From Nitrospirota bacterium (GTDB taxonomy: Bacteria; Nitrospinota_A; UBA7883), in contig JAJRZK010000006.1 of NCBI GenBank assembly GCA_024275315.1, forward strand, positions 830-64,829: a stretch of DNA of 64,000 bases, given 5' to 3'. The notes beneath the pieces were generated by a model. The model was not told where the DNA came from, searched no databases, and saw nothing but the letters and a program-made list of their open reading frames with translations. Positions 3,857-48,239 of this stretch are shown piece by piece (the first letter of the stretch is position 1; each line of letters begins with the position of its first letter). Position numbers and translations under genes: made by a program.

Positions 3857-3963
3857 CTGGATTTATGGCAAACCGAGGTGAGTGTTTATATTAAAACCAG
3901 CCGCCGGTTAATCAGAACCCGGGCGGGATATCGCCGGGTTACGGTCAGCTAGGTTGAAAATCA

Positions 3964-5007: not shown

Positions 5008-5099
5008 GCAATTTATCTCCAATCGTGTTAAGCCGTTTGTATCATAACCGGGCTCTATTAACAACATCTGTTGGGCCATTAGTTGGTATGATATACATC

Positions 5100-6068: not shown

Positions 6069-6069
6069 C

Positions 6070-7275
6070 ATGTTCAGGATCATTGTCCAGGTCGCCTTCA
6101 GGGAGCTTCGCGGGTCGTTGAGCAGGTCGCTGTTGACCATGCTGGGTGTGATAATAGGAGTGGCGGCGGTGGTGGCGATGGTGGCGCTGGGGGAAGGGGC
6201 GAAATATGATGTGGCCCGCAACATACAGAACCTGGGCTCCAACCTGCTGATTATCCGTCCCGGCCTGCTGCAAAAACACCATGTGCGCAGCGCCCCCGCG
6301 CAAACGCTGACCATGGACGACGCCCGCCGGATAAGAAAGACCATTCCCCATGTGGTCTCCGCCGCGCCAAGCATAGCCCAGACGGCCCAGGTAAAATATA
6401 TGAGTGAAAACGTTATGACGAATATTATCGGGGCCACGCCGGACTACCTGTCCGCCCGAAAGTTTTCGACTCGTAAGGGCAAGTTTTTCACATTGCACGA
6501 TGTCGCCTCGGCCAGGCGAGTGGCCGCGCTGGGCAAAACGGTGGCCAAAACGCTTTTCAGGTCCACCAGCCCTGTCGGAAAATATATCAAGATCAACGGC
6601 GTAAACTTTCTGGTGGTGGCGGTCATGGCGGAGAAGGGCCAGGCCGGATGGTGGGACGCGGACGACCAGATACTGATCCCCGTCACCGCGTATCAAAAGC
6701 GGATATTCGGCGGCTCCCATGTCAGCAACATATTTGTAGAGGTGGACAGCCGCGGCTTCATGGCGCAGGTCAAGGCTCGTATCGAAACCCTGTTAAGGCG
6801 CACCCACAGGATAAGGAAAGAAGCCGAAGCGGACTTTCATATCCGGTCCCAGGTGGATATTCTAAAATCGATGGAATCCATGACCAGGACATTCACATAC
6901 CTGCTTGGAGGCATCGCCGCCATATCCCTGGTGGTTGGCGGGATAGGCATCATGAACATCATGCTCGTTACGGTGACCGAGCGAACCAGGGAGGTGGGGC
7001 TCCGAAAGGCGCTGGGCGCCAAGCGGCGGGATATATTAAAGCAGTTTCTTGTGGAGTCCACCATCCTGTCCGGGATAGGGGGAATTGTGGGTGTGGGTCT
7101 GGGCGTGGTGGTGGCGCATGTCATCGGCCAGTTTTCAAAATGGGGAACCCATGTCTCCACCAACTCCATAATGGTGGCGTACATAACCGCTTTGGTGGTC
7201 GGAGTGTTTTTCGGATGGTATCCGGCGTACAAGGCCGCGCAACTCAACCCGGTGGATGCGTTGAGGCATGAATAG
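6070..7275 (+). CDS. MacB/FtsX-like ABC transporter permease
   Basis: RSLLTMLGVIIGVAAVV and GGIGIMNIMLVTVTERTREVGLRKALGA motifs; C-terminal PAYKAAQLNPVDALRHE. Confidence 0.93.
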   Translation: MFRIIVQVAFRELRGSLSRSLLTMLGVIIGVAAVVAMVALGEGAKYDVARNIQNLGSNLLIIRPGLLQKHHVRSAPAQTLTMDDARRIRKTIPHVVSAAPSIAQTAQVKYMSENVMTNIIGATPDYLSARKFSTRKGKFFTLHDVASARRVAALGKTVAKTLFRSTSPVGKYIKINGVNFLVVAVMAEKGQAGWWDADDQILIPVTAYQKRIFGGSHVSNIFVEVDSRGFMAQVKARIETLLRRTHRIRKEAEADFHIRSQVDILKSMESMTRTFTYLLGGIAAISLVVGGIGIMNIMLVTVTERTREVGLRKALGAKRRDILKQFLVESTILSGIGGIVGVGLGVVVAHVIGQFSKWGTHVSTNSIMVAYITALVVGVFFGWYPAYKAAQLNPVDALRHE

Positions 7276-8041
7276 GTTATACAAGATGAATGGTGATCAA
7301 CCACCGATTGCGACGGTCATCATGGCCGCTGGCAAGGGAACCAGGATGCAATCAGACTTGCCCAAGGTCATGCACAACCTTGCCGGGCGGCCCCTGCTTG
7401 CCCATGTTATTGAAACGGCCCGCAAGGTAAACCCGTCCAGGATCGTTATAGTCGTTGGCCATGGAAGGGATCTGGTGATGGACAGGTTTCGTGGAGAGGG
7501 TGTGGAGTTCGCCGTGCAGGAACCGCAACTGGGCACGGGGCACGCCATAGCCCGGACGGAGCCTGTTCTGGGGGATTTCGCCGGCCTTATAATCACCCTG
7601 TCCGGGGACGTGCCGCTGTTGGGAGCCGAAACCTTGAAAAAGATGATCCAGGTTCATCAGGACACCAAAGCTTCGTTGACCGTTCTCACCTGCGAACCGG
7701 ACGACCCCGGGGCGTATGGCAGGATCGTGCGGAGGGACGGGCGTATCGTGGCCAACGTGGAAGCCAGGGACGCGACAGAAGCGGAGTTGTCGATCAGGGA
7801 GATAAACGCGGGTGTATATGTGTTTGACTCCGGTTTTTTGTATCCCGCGCTTAAAAAGGTGGACAACAACAACGCGCAGGGGGAGTATTATCTGACAGAC
7901 CTCATACGCATAGCGGTGGAAAGCGGGCTCACGGTTTCATCCTGCAAGACAGAGGATCCGGTGCAGGCGCAGGGGGTCAACACCAAGGAGCAACTCGAAT
8001 CACTGGCGAATGCGTACATGGCCCGTGTTGAAAGTAGATAG
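7268..8041 (+). CDS. GlmU N-terminal-only nucleotidyltransferase (N-acetylglucosamine-1-phosphate uridyltransferase-like)
   Basis: MAAGKGTRM.SDLPKVMH, QLGTGHA, EINAGVY and NNAQGEYYLTD motifs. It stops at 257 aa with no hexapeptide acetyltransferase domain. Confidence 0.88.
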   Translation: MNRLYKMNGDQPPIATVIMAAGKGTRMQSDLPKVMHNLAGRPLLAHVIETARKVNPSRIVIVVGHGRDLVMDRFRGEGVEFAVQEPQLGTGHAIARTEPVLGDFAGLIITLSGDVPLLGAETLKKMIQVHQDTKASLTVLTCEPDDPGAYGRIVRRDGRIVANVEARDATEAELSIREINAGVYVFDSGFLYPALKKVDNNNAQGEYYLTDLIRIAVESGLTVSSCKTEDPVQAQGVNTKEQLESLANAYMARVESR

Positions 8042-8131
8042 AGCAACTGGCGTGACGGCGAATGGTGGATTTGCCTAAAGTCGGCGCTGGGCATATAATC
8101 GGGGCTCACGTAAAACACAACAGGTTTTGTT

Positions 8132-9340
8132 ATGAAAGCGATTGTATTGGCAGGAGGCCGCGGCGCGAGCATGGCTCCGTTTTCCAGCACCCGCCCGAAC
8201 CCGATGCTCCCGGTGTGCGGGTCGTACGTGATCGACTATACCCTGGGCATGCTCAAAGCCGCAGGTGTAAACCTTGCGAACATGGTTGTAGGCAGCCACG
8301 CAGACGTGATAAAGAGCCATCTTTCCCACGGGCACCCTTCCGGCATGGCCATACACATCATCAACCAGGGCAAGCAGGCCATGATAGGAAAAGCGATATT
8401 GAAAGCCAAATCCCGCTTTTCTCCGGGGGAGCATTTTGTGTTGGTATACGCAGACACCCTGACCACCTCCAACATTTTCAGCGTGGCCCTGCAATCGTTC
8501 GGGCTCCACAACGACCCGGTGGCGTCTATCTGCCATACCGGGTCGGCCGAGAAATACGGCGCGGTCTATCTTGGCCAGGATATGAAGATCACAAAGATAA
8601 TAGAAAAACCAAAAAAGAAAGCCGGGCTGGGCAACTATGTCCTCTCCGGGGTATTCGTGTTGCCGGAGCGTTTTTTCGGCTACCTGGAAAAAGCCAGGGG
8701 CGACATGGAGCAGGCGCTTAAGAACCTGATCGACAAGGAGACCCTTCGCGCTTCCATATGGGAAAACGACTGGCTGGACATGGCCTATCCCTGGGACATT
8801 CTCACCGCCAACCGCATGATAATGGACCAGTGGAAAACAGCGGAAATACATCACAGCGTCGAGCTGAGCGAGACCATAATCAAGGGCCCTGTCAGGATCT
8901 GCCAAGGCGCGGAAGTGCGGGCGGGGTCTGTGCTTGAAGGGCCGGCGTTTATCGGGCCGGGGGCCTTTATCGGGCATAACGTGCTGATTCGTCCATATAC
9001 GTGCGTGGGCGCCAACAGCGTGATCGGCGTGGGGGCGGAGCTCAAGAACTGCGCCCTGTTTCCCGGCGTTAATGTCGGCAGGCTGTCGTTTATAGGCGAT
9101 TCGGTCGTTGGCGAGAGTGTGGATATCGGCGCCGGAACGATGACTATCAACCGCACCATAGACTCCAAACCGGTAAAAGTGAAAGTCGGCGGGAAAATCG
9201 TCGACACCGGGCTGGAGAAGATAGGGGCGTTTATAGGTGACAAGGCGGTTATCGGGGCTTCGAACACCCTGGCCGCGGGGGTGAAGATCGATCCTGGTGT
9301 GATGATCCCTCATAATTGCTCGGTCCACCACCGATGCTAG
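8132..9340 (+). CDS. bifunctional sugar-1-phosphate nucleotidyltransferase/acetyltransferase-like protein (archaeal GlmU-type architecture)
   Basis: MKAIVLAGGRG NTP-transferase start, YPWDIL linker, then left-handed beta-helix repeats (SFIGDSVVG, IGAGT, KIGAFIGD). Confidence 0.8.
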   Translation: MKAIVLAGGRGASMAPFSSTRPNPMLPVCGSYVIDYTLGMLKAAGVNLANMVVGSHADVIKSHLSHGHPSGMAIHIINQGKQAMIGKAILKAKSRFSPGEHFVLVYADTLTTSNIFSVALQSFGLHNDPVASICHTGSAEKYGAVYLGQDMKITKIIEKPKKKAGLGNYVLSGVFVLPERFFGYLEKARGDMEQALKNLIDKETLRASIWENDWLDMAYPWDILTANRMIMDQWKTAEIHHSVELSETIIKGPVRICQGAEVRAGSVLEGPAFIGPGAFIGHNVLIRPYTCVGANSVIGVGAELKNCALFPGVNVGRLSFIGDSVVGESVDIGAGTMTINRTIDSKPVKVKVGGKIVDTGLEKIGAFIGDKAVIGASNTLAAGVKIDPGVMIPHNCSVHHRC

Positions 9341-9363
9341 AAATATTTTCCTGAAGTAAAATT

Positions 9364-11187
9364 ATGTGCGGAATAGCTGGCATAGTTGCACTGGAGGATA
9401 TAAGCGCACGGCTTGTCCAGTCCATACGGAATCTTGAATACAGAGGTTACGACTCGTGCGGGATTGCGATGCTCAACGGGTCTGGAAAAATAAAGATAAG
9501 CAAGAACATCGGCTCTGTCGAGGAAGTCTGCGAGAAGGAAAACTTTGGCAGGCTCAAGGGCTCGGTCGGCATCGCGCATACAAGGTGGGCCACCCATGGC
9601 GGGGTCACCAAATCCAACGCTCATCCCCACATGTCGTGCGACAACGGCTTTTCCATCGCGCACAACGGGATAATATCCAACCATGAAAAGCTCCGGACAA
9701 GGCTGAAAAATGCGGGGCACCGGTTTCGCTCCACCACCGATACGGAGGTGATCGTGCATCTTGTGGAGGACTGGCACAGGAAGGTCAAATCGGTCGAAAA
9801 AGCCTTTGTGGCCGCCATGCGCGAGCTGGACGGGACATACGCCGTCATCCTCGTCACCGGCCACGAGCCGGACAGGATATACTGCGCCAGGAACGAAAGC
9901 CCCCTCCTTATCGGGCTTGGCGATTATGTCAACTATATCGGGTCCGACCTTAACGCCTTTATCGACCACACCAAAAACGCCGTGTTTATGGAGGACAAGG
10001 AATACGCCATTGTCACCCATGACAGCTGCATACTAAAACGCATATCCGATGGCGAGACAATGTCCCGCCAGGTGCAGGAGCTTATGTGGGATTCGGAGAT
10101 GGCGCAAAAGGGTGGTTTTCCCCATTACATGCTCAAGGAAATCTATGAACAGCCCCAGGTTGTCCATAACGCCCTGGATATCGACCCTGAGCTGGTGGAG
10201 GGTTTTGCGAGGATGGCGCTTGAGAAAAAGACGCTGCACATAACGGGGGTCGGCACCACTTTTTACGTGTCCCAGATCGGTCAATATTATTTCAGCAGGT
10301 ACGCCGGCGTTACGCCCATGGTGATATCCTCGGACGAGTTCAGGTTTTTAGCCCAGGTGGACAAGGACACCGCCATCATAGCGGTTTCCCAGTCCGGGGA
10401 GACATACGACACGTTAAACGCTCTTCGTTACGGCAAGAGCCACCATGCGACCACAGGCGCCATAGTGAACGTGATGGGTTCGTCCATGGCCAGGATGGTG
10501 GATCAGATGATCCTCCAGGGGTCCGGGCCGGAGATATGCGTGATCAGTACGAAAGCGGCTCTTTCACAAATGATAATTCTGGCCAGGATCGCGATGGCGG
10601 CGGGGGTGATGAATGGCCGTATAACCGCGAAACAAGCCAGGGGTTACGAGGCGCAATTGCGGGAGCTGCCCGCGGCGATAGAGAACGTGTTGAATGAAAA
10701 ATCGGGTTTTATCCATACAATAGCCCAACAGCAAAGCCATATAAAGCACTGGCTGTTTCTTGGCAGGGGCCGCTATTATCCTGTCGCCAGGGAATCGGCG
10801 CTGAAGATGAAGGAGGTGTCGTATGTTCACGCCGAAGGGATGCCCAGCGGATTTTTGAAACACGGCACGATTGCCCTGATTGATGAGAATCTCAATTCCG
10901 TGGTGTTCGCCCCGCCGGAGGAGGAGAAGGAGCTGTACAAGCTTACCCTCTCCTCGGCCGAAGAGATCAGGGCGCGTGACGGATATGTTCTCGGGCTGAC
11001 ATTCAAACAGAAGAAAAAAGAGAAACTGCCCTTCACAGAGCAGATAGTCCTCCCGAAAACCCCACCCTTCACCGCTCCGTTCCTGCAAATGGTGGTGGCC
11101 CAGCTCCTGTCGTATTTCACCGCCACCACGTTAAAACGCAATATCGACAGACCCAGATCGCTGGCCAAATCGGTGACGGTGGCCTAG
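9364..11187 (+). CDS. glmS: glutamine--fructose-6-phosphate transaminase (isomerizing)
   Basis: N-terminal MCGI nucleophile, LEYRGYDS, HTRWATHG, SQSGET and C-terminal PRSLAKSVTV. Confidence 0.97.
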   Translation: MCGIAGIVALEDISARLVQSIRNLEYRGYDSCGIAMLNGSGKIKISKNIGSVEEVCEKENFGRLKGSVGIAHTRWATHGGVTKSNAHPHMSCDNGFSIAHNGIISNHEKLRTRLKNAGHRFRSTTDTEVIVHLVEDWHRKVKSVEKAFVAAMRELDGTYAVILVTGHEPDRIYCARNESPLLIGLGDYVNYIGSDLNAFIDHTKNAVFMEDKEYAIVTHDSCILKRISDGETMSRQVQELMWDSEMAQKGGFPHYMLKEIYEQPQVVHNALDIDPELVEGFARMALEKKTLHITGVGTTFYVSQIGQYYFSRYAGVTPMVISSDEFRFLAQVDKDTAIIAVSQSGETYDTLNALRYGKSHHATTGAIVNVMGSSMARMVDQMILQGSGPEICVISTKAALSQMIILARIAMAAGVMNGRITAKQARGYEAQLRELPAAIENVLNEKSGFIHTIAQQQSHIKHWLFLGRGRYYPVARESALKMKEVSYVHAEGMPSGFLKHGTIALIDENLNSVVFAPPEEEKELYKLTLSSAEEIRARDGYVLGLTFKQKKKEKLPFTEQIVLPKTPPFTAPFLQMVVAQLLSYFTATTLKRNIDRPRSLAKSVTVA

Positions 11188-11193
11188 GGGAAT

Positions 11194-13239
11194 ATGTTCC
11201 TGTTCCAGGGCACCGATGGCGTTCGCCGGCGTGTGAAACTTTCAACCGACCCCGAATTGTCCGGCTTGACGCCACAACAGGCGTTTATGAGGCATGGCGT
11301 GATCACGGAACGATTCATGGAGCTTTACACCTATTGCCATGTTCGCCAGTTGATCGAGTCCGGTTTCATATCCGAAGGTGATCGTTTTGTTATCGGGTGG
11401 GACCCCCGCGACCCGGACAAGGTGTTCAGCTCCGCGGCGGCGCACGGGTTGGCCAAAGGTGGGGCGAGAGTGGTCGTGGCCGGCGTGGCGCCGACCCCCG
11501 CCGTGGCGCTGTATATGCGATATATAAAAGCCGCCGGGGTGGTCGTGGTTACCGCTTCTCACAATCCGGCTTCTTACAACGGGATAAAAATATTCACAAG
11601 GAGCGGATTGAAGCTTCTCCCCGATGATGATCGGGCGTTGAGCGGCCGGGTCCTTGCCACGGATTACGCGGAGGTGGAACGGGCCGCGGTCGACGTGTCG
11701 ATAGAAGACCATCATGATCGTGCGCTGGAAGTGTTTGTAAATTATTCGATCGACCCGTCCAATAGCTGGATAGACGATCCGGCGTGGCTTGAGGATATGA
11801 CCATTGTGGCGGATTGCGCCAACGGGGCGCTTTCGGAAGTGGCGGAGGGTATTCTCCAAAAGGCCGGGTTCGGCGAAGTGGTCGTGGTGAACGACAGGCT
11901 GGACGGATCGGTCAATGTCCGGTCCGGTGTCGCGGAGTTGGAAGGGGTGGATGAAATCGGGCCGGACATGGTGTCTGACGGCGGCAGGTTCGCGGGGAAC
12001 ATGGCGATGGTTCGTCTGTTTGAAATCGGGAGAAAAAAACGGGATCTTGTGGCGAATGGATCGGCCATGGTGTGCGCCGCTGTGTTCGATGGCGACGGTG
12101 ACCGGTTTTATGGTGTCTTTTACAATCCGCTTACGGATTCGGCTTTCGTCCTGACAGGAGACGAGACCGCCGCGCTCCAGGCGGGGTATATGGCGGAGCG
12201 GGGCGAGGGGGATGGACTGTTTCTCAATACGGTTGAAAGCGACCTGGCCGCCGCCATAAAAGCCAGGGAACTGGGTTTTGCCACCGAGCTTACCGCTGTC
12301 GGTGACAAATGGATTCTGCTGGGTTCGTTTCTCGCCTTGTGGAGGCGGACATTGCCTCCCGATGTGTATAACCACATCAGGTCCCTTATTGACAAGGGAT
12401 CTGTCTCGGCCGATGCGCTGGAAAGGGCGCTGGACGAGGCTGGGGAGGGTCGGGACAAAGTTAGCGCCGCCGGGGGGCTGGCTCTGGTCGGGGCCGAGGA
12501 GAGCGGACACACTATCACCCAAGGGTACCTGGAAATGGCCGATGGCGCGCGGGTCGCGGTTTTTCACGGGAACGGTATCAAGAGCTGTCTTAACACTTTC
12601 GGGGCGATTTGCGGATCGTGGAGGCGTGGATATCACGCTGACGATGTCGAGCCTGCGCTCGATAGGATCCGTCATCCGTTCACGGGTGGGTTCAAAAAGA
12701 CTTTGTATGTCTATTATGTGGATAAATCCCGGTGGCGCAGAGGAACCGCGGTGTGGAATGACGTAAGAGCTGTTATCTGTGAGAAAATGGCGGAACTGTG
12801 GCCCGGAGGTGTTTGCGAGGAGATGGTTCGCGCCGAGGACGCTGATATGCTGTATATGAAAATCATCGAATCGGGGTTGCACACCGGCTCTGTGTTTGTG
12901 AGGAATTCCGGCACGGAGGACAAAACCGGGGTTACGTTGCGGGGGGATGTGACGGCGGAAACGAAGCTGTTGGAAATTGGCGGGGCGGTGTTGCGGCGGC
13001 TCATAGCGGGGTTGAAGGATCAAAAGGGCGTGATGGGCAGGGCCGAGATGGAACTGCTGACAGCGGCCGGGCGGGGGGGCGCTCCGCAATCTCCTGTGGG
13101 CGGGCTGGATGATCGGGAATATCGTCAACTGCTTGTGGAAACCGCTACAAAACAAGGGTTTTTAACCGATCCCGATCCTGGCGCTGTGTTGACGGAGCTT
13201 GGAAAATGGTATCTTTCGACGGGGGAACCAAAAATATGA
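11194..13239 (+). CDS. divergent, enlarged alpha-D-phosphohexomutase (GlmM-like)
   Basis: FQGTDGVR, TASHNP phosphoserine loop, FDGDGDR metal loop, GAEESGH and RNSGTE; 681 aa; lies directly after glmS. Confidence 0.8.
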   Translation: MFLFQGTDGVRRRVKLSTDPELSGLTPQQAFMRHGVITERFMELYTYCHVRQLIESGFISEGDRFVIGWDPRDPDKVFSSAAAHGLAKGGARVVVAGVAPTPAVALYMRYIKAAGVVVVTASHNPASYNGIKIFTRSGLKLLPDDDRALSGRVLATDYAEVERAAVDVSIEDHHDRALEVFVNYSIDPSNSWIDDPAWLEDMTIVADCANGALSEVAEGILQKAGFGEVVVVNDRLDGSVNVRSGVAELEGVDEIGPDMVSDGGRFAGNMAMVRLFEIGRKKRDLVANGSAMVCAAVFDGDGDRFYGVFYNPLTDSAFVLTGDETAALQAGYMAERGEGDGLFLNTVESDLAAAIKARELGFATELTAVGDKWILLGSFLALWRRTLPPDVYNHIRSLIDKGSVSADALERALDEAGEGRDKVSAAGGLALVGAEESGHTITQGYLEMADGARVAVFHGNGIKSCLNTFGAICGSWRRGYHADDVEPALDRIRHPFTGGFKKTLYVYYVDKSRWRRGTAVWNDVRAVICEKMAELWPGGVCEEMVRAEDADMLYMKIIESGLHTGSVFVRNSGTEDKTGVTLRGDVTAETKLLEIGGAVLRRLIAGLKDQKGVMGRAEMELLTAAGRGGAPQSPVGGLDDREYRQLLVETATKQGFLTDPDPGAVLTELGKWYLSTGEPKI

Positions 13240-19075: not shown

Positions 19076-20502
19076 GGCGACAAATGTCACACGGCCGTCG
19101 TGGCGCCCTGGCAAGGGAGATGGGAGCGACTGTGATCATGGCGCTTGCGCTGGTTGCGGCCGGAGCCGCGCTGGGGTTGGCGGCGCTTGGTCTGGTGGGA
19201 GCGAGCCAGGTGGCGTCGGTCAGGGTGGGGGAAGGATATAGCGTCTATTACGCCGCCGTGTCCGGCCTCGAATGGGTGGCCCAGACAGCCGACGGTTTCA
19301 CCACTTCGGACAAGAGCAGATGGTTGTCTGTCGACAATTCAACGGTCGTCATCGGTGATACCGGATTTAAAATATCGATAACCTACTCCGATCCTGACAA
19401 CAGCCCCTTTACGGCCGATACGGCAATCGTGGTTTCGACCGGTTTTGCCGGTGATCCGGCCTTTTCTTCCTCCATACGGGTGTTGACGACCATGATCAAT
19501 GTCCCTGCCCCGGGGCGGACCGCCGTTTTTTCCGACCATTACGACCAGTTGGACGCTTCTTTTTTCGATGGCTCATACCAGTTCGGCCAGGCGGCGGGGT
19601 ATCACGGCGACATGACACCCTACCGCAGTGCGAACCAGGGCGCGGGAGGGGATAACGACGGACTTTTCACATTGTCCCATGAACAGGGCGGCTCCGCCAG
19701 CCTCCTGAAAATGGGCGGCTCTGGCGAGGTGCGTTATTTTATCGCTCCGGAATCGTGCCTTAAATGGCGCACTTCGCCTTTTGGCGATCCATGTTCATAT
19801 CCGGAGTGCGCCAACTCCGCCGATTGCCAGGCTCGCCAGGGGATGGATCTGGCTCAGGATATGGACGGATACCATAACTATTTCATAAAAGTCCGGGCAA
19901 AGCTCGTGTCGGGCGCCGGATTTGGGGTCTATTTCCGGGCGACGTACCCAAATCAAAACGACCCTAGCACGATAGATTTCGGAGGGCTTACCGGCTATGT
20001 TTTCCAGTACGATTCCGGCATGGGATACATAGCCCCCTGCGACCTTTCCACGGCGATACTGGGCAGTGACGGATCCGGCGTGATGTTTACGAGAAAAATT
20101 AGCGGCGGAACGGAGATTTGCCCGGCCGAGTGCGGGATTTTCAGCGCCGTCAACCCGCCGCCACCCTCCGATTCATATCCCTTCTTTTGTCCGGAAAACA
20201 GGACCGGTCGACCCTACCTTGACGGCTGGAGATGGACCAACGCCGACTGGGCTGGTAACTGGAGGACCATATACATATATGTCTACAGGAATGTGGCCGA
20301 TATTTATGTGGACAGGGAACAGGCTGGCGGTCCCGGTATCGAAAGCGTGGGCAGTGTGCGTCTTAACGGCGTCGGCTCCGAGCTGAAAACCGGGGGTGTG
20401 GGGTTGAGGGTGTGGGACAATTCGCAAGCTTTCATCGACTATATCCGGGTCTACCCCAATGACGACAACAAAACCCCCGCCACGTTCACAGGAGACCCGT
20501 GA
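19072..20502 (+). CDS. PilX/MshP-like pilus protein with a large Cys-rich C-terminal beta-sandwich (possible adhesin)
   Basis: MG/ATVIMALALV lacks Glu5, as in PilX/GspK. YYAAVSGLEW PilX-like motif. C-terminal GGVGLRVWDN...FIDYIRVY resembles a ConA-like strand pattern. Confidence 0.65.
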   Translation: MRRQMSHGRRGALAREMGATVIMALALVAAGAALGLAALGLVGASQVASVRVGEGYSVYYAAVSGLEWVAQTADGFTTSDKSRWLSVDNSTVVIGDTGFKISITYSDPDNSPFTADTAIVVSTGFAGDPAFSSSIRVLTTMINVPAPGRTAVFSDHYDQLDASFFDGSYQFGQAAGYHGDMTPYRSANQGAGGDNDGLFTLSHEQGGSASLLKMGGSGEVRYFIAPESCLKWRTSPFGDPCSYPECANSADCQARQGMDLAQDMDGYHNYFIKVRAKLVSGAGFGVYFRATYPNQNDPSTIDFGGLTGYVFQYDSGMGYIAPCDLSTAILGSDGSGVMFTRKISGGTEICPAECGIFSAVNPPPPSDSYPFFCPENRTGRPYLDGWRWTNADWAGNWRTIYIYVYRNVADIYVDREQAGGPGIESVGSVRLNGVGSELKTGGVGLRVWDNSQAFIDYIRVYPNDDNKTPATFTGDP

Positions 20503-30488: not shown

Positions 30489-31700
30489 TTAAAACAGATA
30501 CATTGCGTAGAGCTTGACCCGGTTGTCCGTACCGTCATCGAGCCCTTTGTACTCGGTTGTCCACGACAGGTATTCCATGCCTATGTAGACCGGATCGACC
30601 ACCTTGAACTTGTCCGCGAAGTAATAGATCGTGTTCTTGTCCCGGCCTTCGTTGTCTATATCCTCATAATCGGGATCGTCGAAAGAATACCCCAGTGCGA
30701 CGGAATTTCTGTCCGATGTTTTTATCCCCAGTTCGATCCAGCCACCTTTTGCGTCGATCTCCTTTCCGGTGGTGGCGTTTACCCCCTGGAATATGCCCCC
30801 TCTCACGTCGTCCACGTTGCTTCCGAACCAGAGTTCACCCTGCATGGTGATCGCCTCGGTGAACAGGGGAATAAACGCGTCTACCCCGTATGCGATGGAA
30901 TCCCATTTGTTTTGTCCGGCGATTGCGGTGTCGCTCTCCTCCCATGCCCGATGGCCCCACACGCCGATCTCGATCCGTTGTTCGCCGACGAACGAGGGGA
31001 TGCGATAGGCGATCCGGCCCTGCACAGTCGGTTTACCCGAGTTTTCGCCGTTTGTGACGCCACGGTCATCGTAGTTCTCCCCTGCGATAGCGCCGGTAAG
31101 CCCCAGGGCGGCCTGGATGTAAAGCCGGCCTGAGCCGGCCGCGGGGTGATAGTCGAAACGGAGCTGTGGCCTCCTGTCGCCCAGGTTGCCCGCGCCCCAC
31201 ATCACCATGTCGTAGTTGACCGATGGATAGAGCGGGGAGATAAGGTCTGATGTCTGGCCGGCGAGGAAGGTGTAGTTGTCTCCGCCAAGCTTCATGTACG
31301 CGTGACGCATGCGGAACATGTTGCGTGAATCGGATGACGGCCACGCGTAGAAATCGACCTCTATCCTTCCATCAATTTTCAGCGCCGATCCTGTGTCAGG
31401 CGCGTTGAACAGTATGCCGAACCGGGACAGGCGCGGTGTCATCGTAAACGAGGAATTGTCCTTTCTGACGCCGGAGAAGGCGTCTTCGGATCGTATGTAT
31501 CCGATGATCTGGTTGTCGTTCGGCTCCGAGTCGTCGTAAATGGCGTCGAGCCGGATAAATCCGTATAGTTTGAAAGTAGATCCCTTTTTCGTCACCAGCG
31601 CCGCGCCGTCCTGGCTTGATGCGGTGGCGTTTTTATGGGTGAAAACCGTGATCAACATTATCAGAATAGCTGTAATGAACGGCCATGACCGTTTGGACAT
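30489..31700 (-). CDS. DcaP-like outer-membrane porin
   Basis: Signal peptide, FKLYGFIRLDAIYD, SRFG, GRIEVDF, RMRHAY, LAGQT and C-terminal YLF; SD GGAG upstream of ATG 31700. Confidence 0.8.
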   Translation of the reverse strand: MSKRSWPFITAILIMLITVFTHKNATASSQDGAALVTKKGSTFKLYGFIRLDAIYDDSEPNDNQIIGYIRSEDAFSGVRKDNSSFTMTPRLSRFGILFNAPDTGSALKIDGRIEVDFYAWPSSDSRNMFRMRHAYMKLGGDNYTFLAGQTSDLISPLYPSVNYDMVMWGAGNLGDRRPQLRFDYHPAAGSGRLYIQAALGLTGAIAGENYDDRGVTNGENSGKPTVQGRIAYRIPSFVGEQRIEIGVWGHRAWEESDTAIAGQNKWDSIAYGVDAFIPLFTEAITMQGELWFGSNVDDVRGGIFQGVNATTGKEIDAKGGWIELGIKTSDRNSVALGYSFDDPDYEDIDNEGRDKNTIYYFADKFKVVDPVYIGMEYLSWTTEYKGLDDGTDNRVKLYAMYLF

Positions 31701-31903
31701 AATAGTTCTCCATTTGCTTTTTGGTGTTGGTTTTGTCGTATCGGGAGCCAACTGTTCCATTTCTGGTGATTTGCGTAGATTGGCGGAATTTCGGAATACC
31801 GGTGTTTTGTGAAACCCGCCGGAACCGGACACAGCAATGGCTACATCCAGCTCCCGCTATTTACCACTGAGAGTTTCGTTGACTTTCGACGATGTCGGGC
31901 CGT

Positions 31904-32917
31904 CTACAGGTTTGAAAAGGCCGTAAGCCGCTCGAAACCTTTGAAAGGCTTTCCGTCGATCTCTATGTATGGATCCGGGCCGAAATAGTTTAGCTTTTCA
32001 CCTGCCTGTCGCGGAAACTTGATATCCCGTCCTTCGCTGAACTTGAAGCGGTTTTCGCATATCGAGCCCCAGTAGTATTCTCTCTTGTCCGGATTTTTCC
32101 TGGCTTCGGAAATGTCCACGGGAACCCAACCGAGCCCTGCGGCGTAAAACTTCGCCCAGCAGTGGTACCCCCCCGCCTTGAGTTGTTTGCGATCTTTACC
32201 AGGTGTGAGAGGATATCCCATTTCAAACTTGACGGGGATATTCTGGACCCTCATCATCGATGCGAAAAGGGAATGAAAATCGGTGCAGTTACCCGCCCCC
32301 TCCCCGGAGCCGTTTATCATCACGCAGGCTCTGTTCACATCCCCTTTTCCAAAGCCCGGTATCTGCTTGTTATAGTTCATATGGCCGACTATCCAGTCGT
32401 AAATGGCTCTTGCTTTTTCTATGGCTCCTTTTTTGCCCGCTGTGGCCTCGGCGGAATATTTTCTGACCTTGTCGTTTATGACGGCGTAATGGCTTGGCTC
32501 GAGAAACAGCCTGAACTGCCCGCTGTCATGCACGTAAAAATCATTTTCGGGATCCACTTTTCTGGTCAGGCTTTCGACCCGGTCCACGGTATATACCACA
32601 TTTATGGAAAAGGGCTTTTTGGGGTTGTCCGTGGTGATGAAGAGGGCGCTGTTGCCATATTTGGGCTCATGCTCGACAGTGACAGGGTAGGGGCTGTCGA
32701 TTTTCACGTCAAGAATGCTCTGGTCCTCGTCGCTGGGCGGGTATGGTATCCACATGTTCAGCCTGGACGCGCCGGAGGGTATATCCCTGACTTTTACGAC
32801 ATATGTGAAATTGAAAGTCCTGTGATTCGGGGTTGCGGCTTCCAGAGTTCCGGAAAAACAGAGTGTAAGGAAGGAAAGTGTGACAAAACCAATAAAGCGA
32901 TTGTGGGCGATATTCAT
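31904..32917 (-). CDS. secreted transglutaminase-like (Cys-His-Asp) protein
   Basis: Signal peptide, WIPYP, KARAIYDW, GNCTDFHSLF, GYHCWAKFY and GWVPVD. Confidence 0.88.
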   Translation of the reverse strand: MNIAHNRFIGFVTLSFLTLCFSGTLEAATPNHRTFNFTYVVKVRDIPSGASRLNMWIPYPPSDEDQSILDVKIDSPYPVTVEHEPKYGNSALFITTDNPKKPFSINVVYTVDRVESLTRKVDPENDFYVHDSGQFRLFLEPSHYAVINDKVRKYSAEATAGKKGAIEKARAIYDWIVGHMNYNKQIPGFGKGDVNRACVMINGSGEGAGNCTDFHSLFASMMRVQNIPVKFEMGYPLTPGKDRKQLKAGGYHCWAKFYAAGLGWVPVDISEARKNPDKREYYWGSICENRFKFSEGRDIKFPRQAGEKLNYFGPDPYIEIDGKPFKGFERLTAFSNL

Positions 32918-32946
32918 AGGAAGTCTCCTCTAGATTCTTTTCTGTG

Positions 32947-33060
32947 TTACATCAGGCGCACCTCCCGCCCGATACGCGAGCCGAGCCCGGGGCGCTTGAT
33001 GCGGGGAATTTTCAGGGCATGGTTACACCACGCCGCTCGAACGCCTCAGAGCTTGTGCAT
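32947..33060 (-). other. leader uORF MHKL-UGA with SECIS-like hairpin (37-residue product if UGA is recoded)
   Basis: SD AAGGAGGT 7 nt before ATG 33060, TGA at 33048-33046, hairpin GGCGTGGT-GTA-ACCATGCC starting 11 nt after TGA, next in-frame stop TAA at 32949-32947. Confidence 0.55.
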
Positions 33061-33106
33061 GATGTTGACCTCCTTTTTACGAATCCGACAAAGACTGTTG
33101 CGGCCT

Positions 33107-33136
33107 ATTATAGCGCCATTTTTTGTCATTTGTAAC
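33107..33136 (-). promoter_or_regulatory. sigma70-type promoter for the leader/transglutaminase/porin transcript
   Basis: Perfect TATAAT at 33112-33107; weak -35 (GTTACA/TTACAA) 17-18 bp upstream. Confidence 0.55.
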
Positions 33137-33249
33137 CCTGGTATTACACTAATCTGAAAAAAATAGGCGACCGGCTGAATATCGACAAATTATCAATGAC
33201 TTCGAACTTGCCGGCTGGGTCTCCCCGTCTGTCATTTCAGCCGGGACCA

Positions 33250-33729
33250 TTATTTCAGCATGGTTTCGGCTTGCCGTATACGCTCGGCTTCATAGTCCAC
33301 CACGAGGTTTTCATATTCGCCATCCATAAGAGGGCTGGAAATGGCGAAGTCGGCGGAGGACCTGTTGCAGGCCAGCACGATGTTATAAACCGTGGCGATC
33401 CGCTGGAGAGCGTGGATGTCCGGCTCGTGAGGGTGTGACATAAGCGGGTCCCACAGGAAGATGACGACATCGATTTTGTTGTCGGCGATCCTGGCGCCTA
33501 TTTGCTGGTCCCCTCCCAGCGGGCCGCTTTTAAACAGACAGATCTCAAGCCCCAACTCGCGGGCGATGATGGTCCCAGTTGTGCCGGTGGCGAAAAGCTC
33601 GTGGCGGGCGAGCGACTCCTTGTTGAACTTCACCCATTCGAGCATGTCCTTCTTACGTGAATCATGCGCCACAAGCGCGATCCGCTTTTTCTTCGGAAAA
33701 CGCACTCTTTTATGTGTCGAGTAGCTCAT
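33250..33729 (-). CDS. mgsA: methylglyoxal synthase
   Basis: IALVAHD..K, ATGTTG, SGPLGGDQQIGA, FLWDPL..HPHEPD and ACNRSSAD. Confidence 0.96.
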   Translation of the reverse strand: MSYSTHKRVRFPKKKRIALVAHDSRKKDMLEWVKFNKESLARHELFATGTTGTIIARELGLEICLFKSGPLGGDQQIGARIADNKIDVVIFLWDPLMSHPHEPDIHALQRIATVYNIVLACNRSSADFAISSPLMDGEYENLVVDYEAERIRQAETMLK

Positions 33730-33736
33730 GATTCCA

Positions 33737-35566
33737 TTATTTCCGCGGTGGAGCCTCTCTCCTGCGATGTACGGCGAAATTCACCAGGTAGTTGAACAAC
33801 CGGATCAACTTTCCACCTTCACGTTTCTGATCGGCCCAGTGGCCTATCATTCCGATAGTTCTGGCCAGCACGAAAAACCCGTTTAGAGTTTCGTTCGGGA
33901 ACCCGAGATCGGTTAGAATGCACGCTATGCATCCGTCCACGTTCAGGATAAGGTTACCCTTTTTGCTCGTGGTGACTTTTTCAACTTCCAGGGCGTAATC
34001 GAGATGAGGTGTCCTCAATCCCAGCTCACGCACGCATTTTTTCAGTTCCAACACCCGCCTGTCCGGATTTTTCACCGACTTGACACGATGCCCGATACCC
34101 GGCACCGGGCCGTGGTTCTTTTTCATGTAAGCCAGGAACCCGGTAATATCGTTCGGGTAGTTCAATAATCCGTAATTGAAAAACTTGCCCGCGTCGGTCA
34201 CCGCGCCCCCGAACCTGGGACCGATCATTATCAGCCCGGCGGCCACCGATTGGCTCATGCCGATACCCGCGCACGCCGCCATGATGGTAGCCAACGCCCC
34301 CGACACACACGGGCCATGGTCGGCTGTGAGCATCAGGATACGTCGTATAACCTCCGCTTCCTTGTCGTTTATCAGCCGTTTGTTCCACAACAGCCCCAGG
34401 ATGTGGGGAATGTCGTATCCCTTTTCGATAAGGTCGGACGCCGGATAACCGCAATAAAGCGGCTCTTCGCCCCGGTCGTCGGTGATGGTGGTCTTTAGCA
34501 GGGGCTGGACCATGATGTCGCCGGACCCCAGGACCTCCTCCACCTTTCTGGGTAAATCCGGCAGTTGCGACGCTGGTATGTCCTCCACCACGCTGGCCTG
34601 ACCAGTGGCTTTCAGGTCTTCATAAACCTGTTTAATGGTGTTGCCAAGATCGCCGAAGGTCGGCGGCACGATCACACCGGCTTTCTTCAGGATATCGCTT
34701 TTTGACCTGGCCGAACCTTCGCCATGTTGCCCCTCCTTGGCGCCGGCGTGGCCGAATTTCATCCCCTTGGGCAACGATTCCTGACAAAAACCGGAAACCA
34801 CGGCTACCAGCTTGATCCGGCGCGGCTTGGCGGCGTACCATTCCGCGGCTTTCTCCTCGAGATCACCACCCATTTCGCCTACTATGATCACCGATTTGGT
34901 TTGGGGGTCCTTCTCGAACAACTCAAGGTAAGTCACGAAATCCGTACACGGATATGCGTCCCCCCCGATGCCGATAGTCGTGGTGATACCGTCGGCGAAC
35001 TGGGAAACGAGCCACATGATCTCGTTGGACAATCCGCCGGACTTGGTCAACACGCCGAACGACCCCTGCCTGTAAAGCTTGGACAGCTTCAGGTTGTTAT
35101 ACTCCCCTCCGACAACCCCCAGCCTGCATTCGCCAGCGGATATGATGCCAATGGCCGATGGGCCGTTTAACAGTTTGTTCACCTTTTTTGAATGTTTGAT
35201 AAGCAGTTTGGCGTCTTTTTCAGGGACACCTTCCGTTATCATCGACACGAACTTGATTTTGTCGTTGTCCAGCGCCTCCATGCAGCCCGTATAGGCCCTG
35301 TTTGCGCCTATATACACAAGGCAGGTGTTGGTTTCGGGATGGTTTTCCGTGGCGTCGGCCAGGGTTTTGTATATGGGAATAGACAGAAATTGCGACCCGA
35401 AAGGTATTTCCGACGATTTACCGGCGTCAGGGGGATAAACAAACGAGGTGACGTTATAATCCCTGTTGCAAAGGTAACAGAACTCCGCCATTCTCTTTGC
35501 GGCGTTCACACCGGCCACGCCGCCCATTATCACTACTTTCGTATCTTTTGTTGCGACAATACTCAT
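33737..35566 (-). CDS. aclA: ATP-citrate lyase alpha subunit
   Basis: CoA-binding/ligase domain with FGHAGA phospho-His, fused to a citryl-CoA lyase domain (ADHGPCVSGA, GPRFGGA, PGIGHRVKS, LNVDG); 609 aa. Confidence 0.95.
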   Translation of the reverse strand: MSIVATKDTKVVIMGGVAGVNAAKRMAEFCYLCNRDYNVTSFVYPPDAGKSSEIPFGSQFLSIPIYKTLADATENHPETNTCLVYIGANRAYTGCMEALDNDKIKFVSMITEGVPEKDAKLLIKHSKKVNKLLNGPSAIGIISAGECRLGVVGGEYNNLKLSKLYRQGSFGVLTKSGGLSNEIMWLVSQFADGITTTIGIGGDAYPCTDFVTYLELFEKDPQTKSVIIVGEMGGDLEEKAAEWYAAKPRRIKLVAVVSGFCQESLPKGMKFGHAGAKEGQHGEGSARSKSDILKKAGVIVPPTFGDLGNTIKQVYEDLKATGQASVVEDIPASQLPDLPRKVEEVLGSGDIMVQPLLKTTITDDRGEEPLYCGYPASDLIEKGYDIPHILGLLWNKRLINDKEAEVIRRILMLTADHGPCVSGALATIMAACAGIGMSQSVAAGLIMIGPRFGGAVTDAGKFFNYGLLNYPNDITGFLAYMKKNHGPVPGIGHRVKSVKNPDRRVLELKKCVRELGLRTPHLDYALEVEKVTTSKKGNLILNVDGCIACILTDLGFPNETLNGFFVLARTIGMIGHWADQKREGGKLIRLFNYLVNFAVHRRREAPPRK

Positions 35567-35570
35567 TATC

Positions 35571-36773
35571 CTAGCCCTCCCCCTTTAACGCGAATTTTAC
35601 GATATCGGTCAGGGGTGTGTACCGGTCGTAAACGTGTATATCGAACCCCTCGTCGCCGAGTTTACGCATGGACTCCAGCCCGATAGCCTCGTTGGGCCCG
35701 CCACGGCGCACCCAGATCTTTACGCCGTCGAGCTTGCCTTCCTGCTTGGCCTTGCGAAAACCGGCTATGATGCCTGCGAACGTCGCCTTGACATCGGTGA
35801 AGTTGGCGATCGCCCCGCCTACTATTATGTGTTTGATTCCGGGAAGCGAGCACACCTTGTCCGTCAACGCCTCAACAGCCCAGGCCGGCGGGTCGCCGGA
35901 ATACTCCGAGTAATTGGCGAGAGTGCCGCCCAGAGCCACCACAGCGTCGGAATAAAAGACAGAAGCCCCGCCGCCGGCGGGGAGCATGGCCACTTCGCCG
36001 CCCGGTATCTCTATGAGCTTGACAGAACCCTTGACGCGGCTGTCTATCTCCATGATCTGTTTCTCGTCTTCCGTGTAGGCCCGGCCAAACTCGGGGGCGA
36101 ACGAAAAGTTCCAGTCCGGATGACGGAACCTCGCGTCCCCGTCGAGCATGATAACAGCGTCCAGCGCGCACAGCTTGCCATCGATCGGGCTTATTATCAG
36201 GGGATTTATCTCCATGTACTGGCCGTCCTCGTTGTCATAGCATTCATACAGGCGGCTGGCGAACTTGCGCATTTTATCTACCAGTTCACCGTCAAACCCC
36301 GCCTCCCTGGCGCACGATTCGAGCTGTTCATCTGTCGGTTTTTCACCAATTTCCACATGTGTGCGGGAGATTTTTTCCCAGTTATCCTCCACCTCGACCC
36401 CGCCGAACTTCGCCATGAGCACTTCCGCTCCCTCCCGGTCCGATTTGACCGCCAGGTAATACTCGTCTTCATGGACCAGCATTTCGGCTATGATGACTTG
36501 TGAGATGACCAACCCCTGCACCTCCACGCCAAGGATTTCCTTGGCGGTCGCGATCGCCTGGTCTATATCCAGATCGATTTTTACAAGCCCCAGTTTGAAC
36601 CTGGAACCGATAGCTTCATGCGCTTTTACAACCATTTTGCATTCGCGCATCCATTGGTTGGACTGAACCAGAGACTCTATCTGATCAGAAGTGGAAATAA
36701 CAACATGACGAGGAGTCCTGATGCCCCACTTATTAAACAATTCCATACCGGGTCCTTCAAGCACTTTGGCCAT
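35571..36773 (-). CDS. aclB: ATP-citrate lyase beta subunit
   Basis: ATP-grasp plus citrate-binding domain (AGGGASV, NYSEYSGDP, GGAIANFTDV, VRRGGPN); adjacent to aclA. Confidence 0.95.
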   Translation of the reverse strand: MAKVLEGPGMELFNKWGIRTPRHVVISTSDQIESLVQSNQWMRECKMVVKAHEAIGSRFKLGLVKIDLDIDQAIATAKEILGVEVQGLVISQVIIAEMLVHEDEYYLAVKSDREGAEVLMAKFGGVEVEDNWEKISRTHVEIGEKPTDEQLESCAREAGFDGELVDKMRKFASRLYECYDNEDGQYMEINPLIISPIDGKLCALDAVIMLDGDARFRHPDWNFSFAPEFGRAYTEDEKQIMEIDSRVKGSVKLIEIPGGEVAMLPAGGGASVFYSDAVVALGGTLANYSEYSGDPPAWAVEALTDKVCSLPGIKHIIVGGAIANFTDVKATFAGIIAGFRKAKQEGKLDGVKIWVRRGGPNEAIGLESMRKLGDEGFDIHVYDRYTPLTDIVKFALKGEG

Positions 36774-45650: not shown

Positions 45651-47636
45651 ATGCAGATAAAATTCAGGCTGGTTTCCGATTTTTCTCCCGCGGGCGACCA
45701 GCCGGAAGCCATATCAAGCCTGGTGCAAGGTCTGCGCGATGGCCTGACCGACCAGGTGTTGTTGGGTGTCACCGGGTCCGGAAAAACGTTTACCATGGCG
45801 AGCGTAATCGAAAAGGTTCAGCGGCCAACCCTCGTCATCGCCCACAATAAAACCCTGGCGGCGCAATTGTATACGGAGTTTAAGACGTTTTTTCCGGACA
45901 ACGCCGTGGAATATTTCGTCTCCTATTACGACTATTACCAACCGGAGGCGTATCTGCCGAAAACTTCCACCTACATAGAAAAGGATGCGTCGATAAACGA
46001 CGAGATAGACAAGATGCGCCATAGCGCCACCAGGTCTTTGCTGGAGCGGGAGGATGTTGTGATTGTGGCCTCGGTTTCGTGCATATACGGCCTTGGGTCG
46101 CCGGAGGCGTATTATGGCATGAAAATCTCCGTCAAACAGGGGGAGATACTCGACAGGGACAAGTTCCTGGAAACCCTGGTCGGCATCCAGTACGAGCGGA
46201 ACAATGTCGATTTTCGCCGGGGAACGTTCCGTGTCAATGGGGATGTGGTGGAAATACTGCCGATATATGAAACCGACACGGCGATACGGATAGAGTTTTT
46301 CGGGGACGAGATAGACACGATATCGATAGTCGATCCGCTGACAGGCAGGGTTATCAACCGGATATTGTCGGTAAACATCTATCCTGGCTCGCATTATGTC
46401 ACGCCTGATGACGTGATGAAAAAGGCGCTGGTGGAAATTCAGAGCGAGATGGAAATCGCGGAGGATTCGTTTCTGGCGAATAACAAGCTTATCGAGGCGC
46501 AAAGAATCCGGGAACGCACCCTGGCTGATATTGAAATGATAAAAGCCATCGGCTACTGTAACGGTATCGAAAACTATTCACGCTACCTTTCCGGCCGTGA
46601 ATCCGGCTCGCCGCCTCCAACGTTGCTGGAGTATTTCCCGGACAACGCTCTGTTTATCATCGACGAAAGCCATCAGACCATACCCCAGATAGGGGCGATG
46701 ATAAAAGGAGACAGATCCAGAAAAAAATCGCTGGTGAACTATGGGTTCCGGCTTCCGTCGGCGTATGACAACCGCCCCCTGTCTTTTGAAGAGTTCGAGG
46801 CGCTTACAGGGCAGGTTATATATGTTTCCGCGACGCCGGGTGCGTATGAATACAACAAAACAGGGGGGCAGGTGGTGGAGCAGGTGGTTCGGCCAACCGG
46901 CCTTGTCGATCCGAGGATAATCGTGCGTCCGGTGCGCAACCAGGTGGACGACCTGCTCGACGAGATCAACGACCATGTCGCCAAAAACCAGCGTGTGCTG
47001 GTTGGGGCGCTTACCAAACGTCAGGCGGAGGATCTGACCGACTATTACCAGGGGCTGGATGTGCGGGCCAGGTATCTGCATTCGGACATAAAAACGCTGG
47101 AAAGAATGGCTATCATAAATGACCTGCGGTCGGGCGTTTTCGATGTTCTTGTCGGGATCAACCTGTTGCGGGAGGGGCTCGACCTGCCGGAGGTGGGGCT
47201 GGTGGCCATACTAAACGCGGATATGGAGGGGTTTCTCCGGTCCGAAACGTCGCTGATCCAGACCGCGGGCAGGGCGGCCCGCAATATCGAGGGAAAAGTC
47301 ATCCTGTACGCCGACAGGATCACCGGATCCATGCGGCGGGCGATAGACGAAACCAACCGAAGGAGGAAGTTGCAGGAAAGCTATAACGCGAAAAATAAAA
47401 TTGTCCCGAGAAGCACCGTGCGTAAAATCGACACTGCGCTGATGTTTGTCTCTGGAGGCGCGGCGTCGGAGAAGCTCGAAAAACTGGATATCGAAAACCT
47501 TGCGCTGGACCACATCGAAAGAGTGATCGCAGAACATGAATCCGCCATGAAAAAAGCGGCGGCGGAGCTCGACTTCGAATCCGCCGCGCGATATCGTGAC
47601 GAAATAACCAGGCTCAAAAAACTTGCCCTACTGTAA
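45651..47636 (+). CDS. uvrB: excinuclease ABC subunit B
   Basis: [26 protein letters not shown] and a C-terminal UVR domain. Confidence 0.98.
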
Positions 47637-47657
47637 CGCGCGAAAGGCCGGGTTTCC

Positions 47658-48239
47658 CTAGCCGCACAAAATTTCTTTCAGCTTTTCTATCGCTCTGGCG
47701 CGGTGGCTGATCCTGTTTTTTATCGAAAGCGGAAGCTGGGCCATGGTCTTGCCGTATTCGGGAATGTAAAATATCGGGTCGTACCCGAACCCGTCGTCTC
47801 CCTCCTGCCGGTCGTGGATCACTCCTGTACATGTCCCTTCCACGGTGCGCTCTTGTTTTGTGTCGGGATCGTACATGGCGATGGAGCAACGATACCGGCA
47901 ACCACGGTTATTGTCGCCCTTGAGTTTTTCGAGTATATCGGCGTTGACTTCGCTGTAGGGCCGGTCTCCGGCGTGCCTGGCGGAGTACACGCCCAGCTCG
48001 CCGGGCATGGCGTCGATCTCTATCCCGGAGTCTTCGGCGACTACCGGTTTGCCGATATGTATGGCGATGGCCTTGGCTTTGAGCATGGCGTTGTCGGCGT
48101 ATGTCTCTCCTGTTTCTTCCACTTCCGGGGCGTCGGGAATGGATTCAAGCCCGGTAAAGACTATACCGGCGCTTTTAAACGCGTGGTTGAATTCACGTAA
48201 CTTGCCAATATTACGACTGGCCAATATCAATTCTTTCAT
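47658..48239 (-). CDS. rdgB: non-canonical purine NTP pyrophosphatase (ITPase/XTPase)
   Basis: ASRNIGKLRE, EDSG, GVYSAR, GFGYDPIF and KNRISHR. Confidence 0.94.
   Translation of the reverse strand: MKELILASRNIGKLREFNHAFKSAGIVFTGLESIPDAPEVEETGETYADNAMLKAKAIAIHIGKPVVAEDSGIEIDAMPGELGVYSARHAGDRPYSEVNADILEKLKGDNNRGCRYRCSIAMYDPDTKQERTVEGTCTGVIHDRQEGDDGFGYDPIFYIPEYGKTMAQLPLSIKNRISHRARAIEKLKEILCG

Follow-up and report, generated by a model that had tools for sequence, protein, structure and literature searches.

A candidate selenocysteine-dependent leader upstream of a transglutaminase-like and porin operon in a Nitrospirota bacterium

We consider a short leader in a stretch of 64,000 nucleotides from a Nitrospirota bacterium (assembly GCA_024275315.1, contig JAJRZK010000006.1, positions 830 to 64,829 of the forward strand), hereafter called the window; its assembly, denoted G000, comprises 63 contigs and is 100% complete. 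On the minus strand of the window, an upstream open reading frame (uORF) of four sense codons terminates at a UGA; a hairpin resembling a bacterial selenocysteine insertion sequence (SECIS) comes next, and farther downstream are the genes of a transglutaminase-like (TGase-like) exported protein and a putative porin. A preliminary description of this DNA had proposed that the leader senses selenocysteine (Sec). All the leader features that it placed on the minus strand were confirmed by reading the sequence, while the gap between the stop codon of the read-through frame and the next start codon, given as 30 nt, is 29 nt.

The leader and its operon

The features of the leader and of the operon, in the direction of transcription, are as follows (SD, Shine-Dalgarno sequence).

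33107..33136, minus strand: promoter-like site of sigma-70 type, GTTACA-18 nt-TATAAT, from a pattern scan (10 of 12 consensus matches); the -10 box TATAAT, as read in the sequence, is at 33112-33107
33075-33068, minus strand: SD of the uORF, AAGGAGGT, with the ATG 7 nt downstream; this SD is also kept in a second genome, G013
33060-33046, minus strand: leader uORF, ATG CAC AAG CTC TGA (M-H-K-L-UGA), with the ATG at 33060-33058
33048-33046, minus strand: candidate Sec codon TGA, codon 5 of the uORF
33045-33035, minus strand: spacer of 11 nt between the UGA and the hairpin, read in the sequence
33034-33016, minus strand: SECIS-like hairpin of 8 bp, including one G-U pair, with a GUA triloop at 33026-33024
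32947..33045, minus strand: read-through frame, 32 codons past the UGA, with its TAA at 32949-32947
32930-32925, minus strand: SD of the TGase-like gene, GAGGAG, read in the sequence
31904..32917, minus strand: 337-aa TGase-like exported protein, its N-terminus resembling a signal peptide, with a Pfam Transglut_core match (E 6.7e-22)
30489..31832, minus strand: putative outer-membrane porin, 447 aa, whose match to DcaP is weak (22.7 bits, the cut-off being 27)

Judging by its SD, the uORF is presumably translated. Counted from the UGA, the GUA loop begins at 19 nt. The stop codon of the read-through frame is separated from the ATG of the TGase-like gene (32917) by the 29 nt mentioned above. 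RNAfold predicts both the leader hairpin and the bulged lower stem by which, according to the preliminary description, it can be extended. The 48-nt segment with the hairpin has a stability z-score of -1.98, and 9 of 200 shuffled sequences fold equally well; the stability of the entire 206-nt leader is unexceptional (z -0.49). Rfam has no matches in the 64-kb window; when the threshold is relaxed to E <= 10, the region 32700-33400 yields only two matches, both to miRNA families and on the opposite strand. The plus-strand open reading frames that overlap the leader have no Pfam support.

The gene following the porin gene is situated on the opposite strand and encodes an ATPase of the Mrp/NUBPL type, hence the operon consists of two genes.

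Recurrence of the leader and its association with selenocysteine decoding

A search with the TGase-like protein gave matches at E <= 1e-20 in 21 of the 32 genomes of the class, and seven genomes besides G000 have close orthologs, which are 54-68% identical over the best segment of the match. When the upstream regions of the eight loci were compared, the layout of the window was observed in locus L019 from G013, a genome of another family in the same order. The leader of L019 consists of an SD, the uORF ATG GGC AGG CTT TGA (M-G-R-L-UGA), a spacer of 11 nt and a stem of 8 bp capped by a GUA loop. One more leader was found in locus L085, a metagenome contig, where an 11-codon uORF ending in S-L-UGA (CTT TGA) is followed after 11 nt by a stem of eight positions with a GUA loop. 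The TGase-like proteins adjacent to these two leaders are 55-59% identical to that of the window and 70% identical to each other.

All three leaders have an SD, a leucine codon before the UGA, a spacer of exactly 11 nt and a GUA loop. The length of the uORF is 4, 4 and 11 codons in the window, L019 and L085, respectively (the three loci are given in this order below), yet the spacing stays at 11 nt. In the three-sequence alignment of the stem, 23 of the 24 cells are paired and compensatory changes affect three of the eight pairs; the closing pair differs between the loci (U-A, A-U and G-C). The covariation score was equalled by 5 of 500 shuffles, and sliding the partners against each other reduced the pairing to 29-54%. 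The UGA and the ATG of the TGase-like gene are 128, 127 and 128 nt apart. Thus the SD-uORF-UGA arrangement, the 11-nt spacing and the covarying stem, which the preliminary description suggested looking for in orthologous loci, are retained in two loci besides the window.

Past the UGA, the frame continues for 32, 35 and 34 codons, its stop codon lying 29, 19 and 23 nt ahead of the ATG of the TGase-like gene. The encoded peptides are dissimilar except for their endings, V-R-L-M, V-R-L-E and V-Q-L-E. In the MAFFT nucleotide alignment the read-through stop of G000 does not line up with those of the other two loci, hence the shared V-[RQ]-L-[ME] ending may be due to conservation at the nucleotide level or to chance. 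A conserved protein sequence around Sec, or a conserved cysteine, was looked for in the three peptides and not found, that of L085 having no cysteine at all. This agrees with the earlier remark that the product does not look like a folded enzyme, and fits a regulatory role.

As separate observations on this region, the final sense codon of the read-through frame in the window (32947-32970, minus strand) is an ATG, with GGAGGT 7 nt before it and the TAA directly after it, forming a start-stop; RNAfold places the GGAGGUG near the end of the frame in a hairpin loop. In the MAFFT alignment, G013 has ATGTGA at the position matching the start-stop, but out of frame. At the other end of the leader, the stretch around the -10 box of the window (33104-33120, minus strand) is by eye nearly identical to positions 1049-1065 of L085, where the -10-like stretch is approximately 60 nt farther from the uORF than in G000. 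Upstream of it, a U-run followed by TAGTG is common to G000 and L085, also by eye.

To estimate how often such an arrangement arises by coincidence, we scanned G000. Of its 89,073 TGA trinucleotides, 54 have a perfectly paired stem of 8 bp, capped by a G-first triloop, 9-13 nt downstream, and 78 mini-ORFs (a GGAGG, an ATG and up to 11 sense codons) terminate in TGA. From these counts, approximately 0.05 coincidental sites are expected per genome. The strict layout of mini-ORF, TGA and hairpin occurs in G000 exactly once, at the window site. Genome scans revealed no further copies of the leader within G000, hence there is no regulon of such leaders.

Searches for additional members were made at several levels. 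At the DNA level, 41 relatives gave no match to the leader as such, and the search produced a 25-nt match in G020 (locus L016, E 4e-4). A covariance model built from the window and L019 (R1) found, among the 32 class genomes, G000 and G013 only; six weak matches (E 0.09-0.92) were rejected, as the uORF-UGA-hairpin layout was absent from all six and three represented one shared motif. The same model was applied to 100 TGase loci (80 metagenome loci and 20 of the 28 genome-contig loci, L068-L075 being covered by a script scan only), where the single new match was L085 (24.4 bits, E 1.7e-4). The script scan of the 28 genome-contig loci produced weak candidates in L054, L061, L064 and L066, which were discarded since they were without the SD, spacing and loop layout. 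A second model that also included L085 (R2) retrieved no further leader from the 33 genomes of the phylum; its extra match in G008 was rejected, as it lies within a 119-aa open reading frame and has no UGA.

The machinery for Sec decoding, the presence of which the preliminary description had left to be checked, is encoded in G000. We found tRNA-Sec, the product of selC (77.5 bits, the cut-off being 47), SelA (506.8 bits), SelB, with its wing-3 domain within a 646-aa frame, and SelD, with a single in-frame TGA in the motif GGUGAK. SelA and SelD with a UGA are also present in G013.

Three selenoprotein genes of G000 provide verified SECIS elements for comparison. The element of SelD lies at 9 nt and has 8 bp and a GGA loop; that of a thioredoxin-like (Trx-like) WUGYC (UxxC) protein lies at 11 nt and has 8 bp and a GUC loop; that of an FwdB/Fdh-like SSVUH protein has a long stem with apical 5 bp and a GUG loop. 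All three have G-first triloops, and the geometry of the Trx-like one is identical to that of the leader hairpin. The G-first loop of three bases may be a lineage-specific form of SECIS. The verified selenoprotein genes are situated at C19:57125, C56:4729 and C49:15523.

We then considered the distribution of the leader against the Sec trait. Among the 33 genomes of the phylum, SelA is present in 14 and SelD in 16. In the FastTree tree of 111 non-identical TGase-like proteins (10 identical rows and 9 partial loci were dropped), the leader-bearing genes fall into one subclade of eight rows (support 86) within a clade of 16 rows (support 100). The subclade also contains five rows without a leader, from G015, G018, G024 and the metagenome contigs L084 and L087. 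As the preliminary description had anticipated for Sec-negative relatives, the three nearest orthologs that could be assessed, in G015, G018 and G024, have no leader, and SelA was not found in those genomes: G015 (87% complete) has SelD without a UGA, and in G018 (98% complete) and G024 (97% complete) neither SelA nor SelD was found. Thus, as far as can be told from the genomes, the leader appears to be present only where Sec is decoded (G000 and G013, L085 being a metagenome contig), but not everywhere where Sec is decoded.

In G010, one of the genomes with more distant orthologs, the TGase-like gene appears to be split (L038/L024, G010:C73): residues 18-192 (42% identity) and residues 176-337 (68% identity) are encoded in different frames, which reflects either a frameshifted ortholog or a chimeric assembly.

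The TGase-like family is also linked to selenium by its gene neighbourhoods. In a tblastn search with SelA, SelB and SelD as queries against 129 TGase loci, a sel gene was found in the flanks, on the same strand, in eight. In four loci, all from metagenome-assembled genomes (MAGs) of Planctomycetota, selB is immediately upstream of the TGase-like gene; in L133 selB is downstream, and in L134, L144 and L155 selD is downstream. L155, a soil contig, also has tRNA-Sec directly upstream, giving the order tRNA-Sec-TGase-selD. These eight loci belong to three separate parts of the tree. A sel cluster is present in the Planctomycetota MAG G044, where the order is class-V aminotransferase (AT5)-selA-selD-selB-TGase (L168, G044:C2:362000-378000, positions 2716-10295). 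Together, the TGase loci in or beside clusters of Sec machinery are L168, L053, L055, L062, L064, L133, L134, L144 and L155. No link between sel genes and this family was found in NCBIfam or in the literature searched. In L168, the TGase-like gene is followed immediately by a tandem pair of IS200-like (Y1 transposase) genes (10421-11472).

A proposed selenium-dependent switch and its alternatives

The reading that we favour, with slightly better than even confidence, is that of a leader uORF which relies on the decoding of Sec and acts as a gate for an envelope operon linked to selenium. Transcription would begin at the leader's own promoter, and ribosomes would load at the strong SD, decode four codons and reach the UGA. 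The hairpin 11 nt past the UGA would serve as a bacterial SECIS like those that the host itself uses. If SelB.GTP.Sec-tRNASec is available, it would bind the hairpin and Sec would be inserted; the ribosome would then translate approximately 32 unconserved codons and terminate 29 nt ahead of the TGase-like start codon. Vice versa, if SelB.GTP.Sec-tRNASec is absent, release factor 2 (RF2) would terminate translation, leaving approximately 100 nt of the leader untranslated. Read-through could aid the operon through coupled translation or re-initiation at the ribosome binding site close by, through relief of polarity, the leader being shielded from premature termination of transcription, or through both. 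The binding of SelB to the hairpin, the insertion of Sec and the control of the operon are inferred, and as to the direction of the switch we lean, by a fair but not a wide measure, towards read-through turning the operon on. Since the TGase-like family is genomically tied to sel genes, the output of the operon would track the Sec-decoding capacity of the cell.

If this is true, the leader would be the first natural gene switch that the 21st amino acid operates, and its approximately 60 nt would offer synthetic biology a compact part that responds to selenium. Leader peptides sensing the supply of amino acids and the recoding of UGA by SECIS elements are already known; the new element would be Sec recoding itself as the sensor. 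A broader suggestion, which we put forward tentatively and with rather less than even confidence, is that a Sec-gated leader switches, on or off, a TGase-like enzyme and a porin that jointly form an unrecognised module for selenium acquisition or handling. It is based on the enzyme family being embedded in selC/selA/selB/selD clusters of Planctomycetota and soil bacteria. The unannotated TGase-like family, together with the porin, is a candidate for a missing piece of selenium uptake or processing in the envelope.

Several known systems share parts of this design. In the trpL and hisL attenuators and at the UGA frameshift site of prfB, the decoding of a short open reading frame reports on a component of translation and sets expression; here there is no terminator or antiterminator, U-run or frameshift site, and the sensed component would be SelB.Sec-tRNASec. 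The leader resembles the fdhF-type SECIS of E. coli in the in-frame UGA, the upper stem-loop at 11 nt and the loop that opens with G and then U; it differs in being situated in a four-codon leader frame rather than in a conserved enzyme gene, in the unconserved peptide past the UGA and in the three-base loop. A bulged U in the upper stem is a feature of the fdhF-type SECIS, and the leader hairpin has none. The bSECISearch description reportedly places the apical loop approximately 16-37 nt after the UGA; that of the leader is at 19 nt. The core of the E. coli SECIS is an upper stem-loop of 17 nt that begins 11 nt after the UGA (PMC8659212).

A regulatory use of such hairpins has precedents. 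In the 5' untranslated region (UTR) of E. coli selAB, a SECIS-like element located 3 nt from the SD reports the SelB/Sec-tRNA state (PMC13449736). Our leader is similar in that a SECIS-type hairpin is situated in a 5' leader and has a regulatory role, not one in the synthesis of a selenoenzyme. However, the selAB element has no uORF or UGA and represses on binding, whereas here there is a uORF with a UGA, and the regulated start is approximately 100 nt downstream. In Treponema primitia, selenium controls the transcription of fdhF(Sec), and translation across the UGA/SECIS raises transcript elongation (PMC3892789), a precedent for the proposed effect on transcription of the leader. The similarity is that translation of a UGA/SECIS decides downstream transcription or expression, as we propose here; the difference is that the T. 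primitia UGA is the catalytic Sec codon inside an enzyme gene, and in our case there is a dedicated leader before genes without a Sec codon. A Sec-uORF leader as such had no published description in the literature searched, which is in line with the earlier statement that no attenuator of this kind was known; in a 2026 review of prokaryotic selenoproteomes, the words 'leader' and 'uORF' are absent.

The Sec-sensing leader of the preliminary description is partly supported. It passed all the sequence-level tests that the description had suggested; it has three known members, and at least five Sec-positive genomes with more distant orthologs are without it. The following observations weigh against it. 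Of the three members, L019 and L085 are sisters, so that there are effectively about two independent lineages. In L085 one position of the stem is a G.A mismatch, and the SD is at a suboptimal distance of 11 nt from the ATG. The criteria for a bacterial SECIS are loose: under looser rules, a hairpin follows the stop codon of mini-ORFs in G000 equally often for TGA (9 of 2403), TAA (7 of 1780) and TAG (4 of 1081). The openness of the read-through frame is weakly non-random, as shuffled sequences are open for as long in 44%, 32% and 17% of cases. No intrinsic terminator-like site is present on the minus strand at 33046-32917, hence the leader does not qualify as a trp-type attenuator, and the three-sequence comparison does not support any conserved structure outside the hairpin. 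Without a terminator or additional conserved structure, the coupling step lacks a visible device. The TGase-like gene is not strictly tied to selenium, being kept in G018 and G024, where SelA and SelD were not found. Finally, the Sec-positive genomes G010, G011, G041, G042 and G043 have more distant orthologs without the leader; the SelD of G011 carries a UGA.

Four alternatives should be distinguished from a leader that depends on Sec decoding. The hairpin could be a SelB-binding operator or titration site, where binding of the SelB.GTP.Sec-tRNA complex alone, without productive recoding, alters the translation or stability of the operon mRNA. The hairpin geometry equal to that of the SECIS elements of G000 itself, the selAB precedent (PMC13449736), the unconserved read-through peptide and the statistically weak open frame are all compatible with such a site. 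However, the position of the hairpin, which ends at 33016 with the SD of the TGase-like gene at 32930-32925 and the uORF with its UGA preceding it, does not correspond to an operator of the selAB type: the E. coli element is 3 nt from the regulated SD, and here approximately 85 nt separate the two. A simple operator would also leave unexplained the uORF with its SD, the UGA in all three loci and the exact 11-nt spacing; we regard it as unlikely. The same low probability is assigned to an ordinary uORF with a stabilising or coupling hairpin, unrelated to Sec and perhaps sensing general translation or RF2 activity. Since the rules for SECIS are loose, the likeness would then be coincidental, as would befit a hairpin that is no more common after TGA than after TAA or TAG, the absence of Rfam matches and the several Sec-positive genomes without the leader. 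Such a uORF would not account for a GUA loop that is invariant while the stem covaries, for the 11-nt spacing and the UGA in three of the three loci, for the restriction of the leader to Sec-decoding genomes and its loss in the nearest relatives where SelA was not found, or for the occurrence of the regulated gene family in sel clusters elsewhere.

The two remaining alternatives are less probable. The read-through frame could be the gene of a true small selenoprotein (37-46 residues) that has its own function, as the frame is open in three loci with similar endings, and in G000 a cysteine follows seven residues after Sec. The peptides, however, cannot be aligned except for the last residues, have no conserved cysteine partner and end out of register, making this explanation very improbable. 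A functionless coincidence of SD, mini-ORF and hairpin seems hardly credible at all: although the expected number of about 0.05 sites per genome is not negligible for a preliminary description that scanned many kinds of patterns, the full layout recurs in two loci with proteins of approximately 55-59% identity, with compensatory changes in the stem and with the distances kept. As the layout is conserved in these two further loci, we rule chance out.

The operon proteins and the surrounding genes

In the TGase-like protein, Cys211, His252 and Asp268 are invariant in 28 aligned homologs, and a second invariant cysteine adjoins the histidine. The AlphaFold2 (AF2) model of the protein has a predicted local distance difference test (pLDDT) score of 90, and its best match in the Protein Data Bank (PDB) is 3ISR, a putative cysteine protease; the fold search returned 3ISR and eukaryotic transglutaminases and gave no functional clue. 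The protein has no matching model in NCBIfam, and Pfam provides only the generic transglutaminase core. Replacement of the catalytic cysteine by Sec was considered in the homologs and rejected, no case being found; the internal stop in L068 is elsewhere in the protein. The sole mention in the literature searched, in PMC5322559, is a table that lists a transglutaminase-like enzyme as a predicted partner. G013 has a Porin_5-type gene in the position equivalent to that of the window porin, the two not being alike by BLASTP.

Upstream of the leader are the following genes.

33250-33729: methylglyoxal synthase
33737-36773, minus strand: two adjacent genes of ATP-citrate lyase subunits, one with citrate-binding/ATP-grasp domains and one with CoA-ligase/citrate-synthase domains

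The ATP-citrate lyase genes suggest a reductive tricarboxylic acid (TCA) cycle.

Elsewhere in G000, contig C15 produced identical scan matches at identical coordinates on both strands, and its tRNA-like matches are mirrored, 20024-20105 on the minus strand and 47608-47689 on the plus strand. C15 appears to be its own reverse complement, which is probably an assembly artefact.

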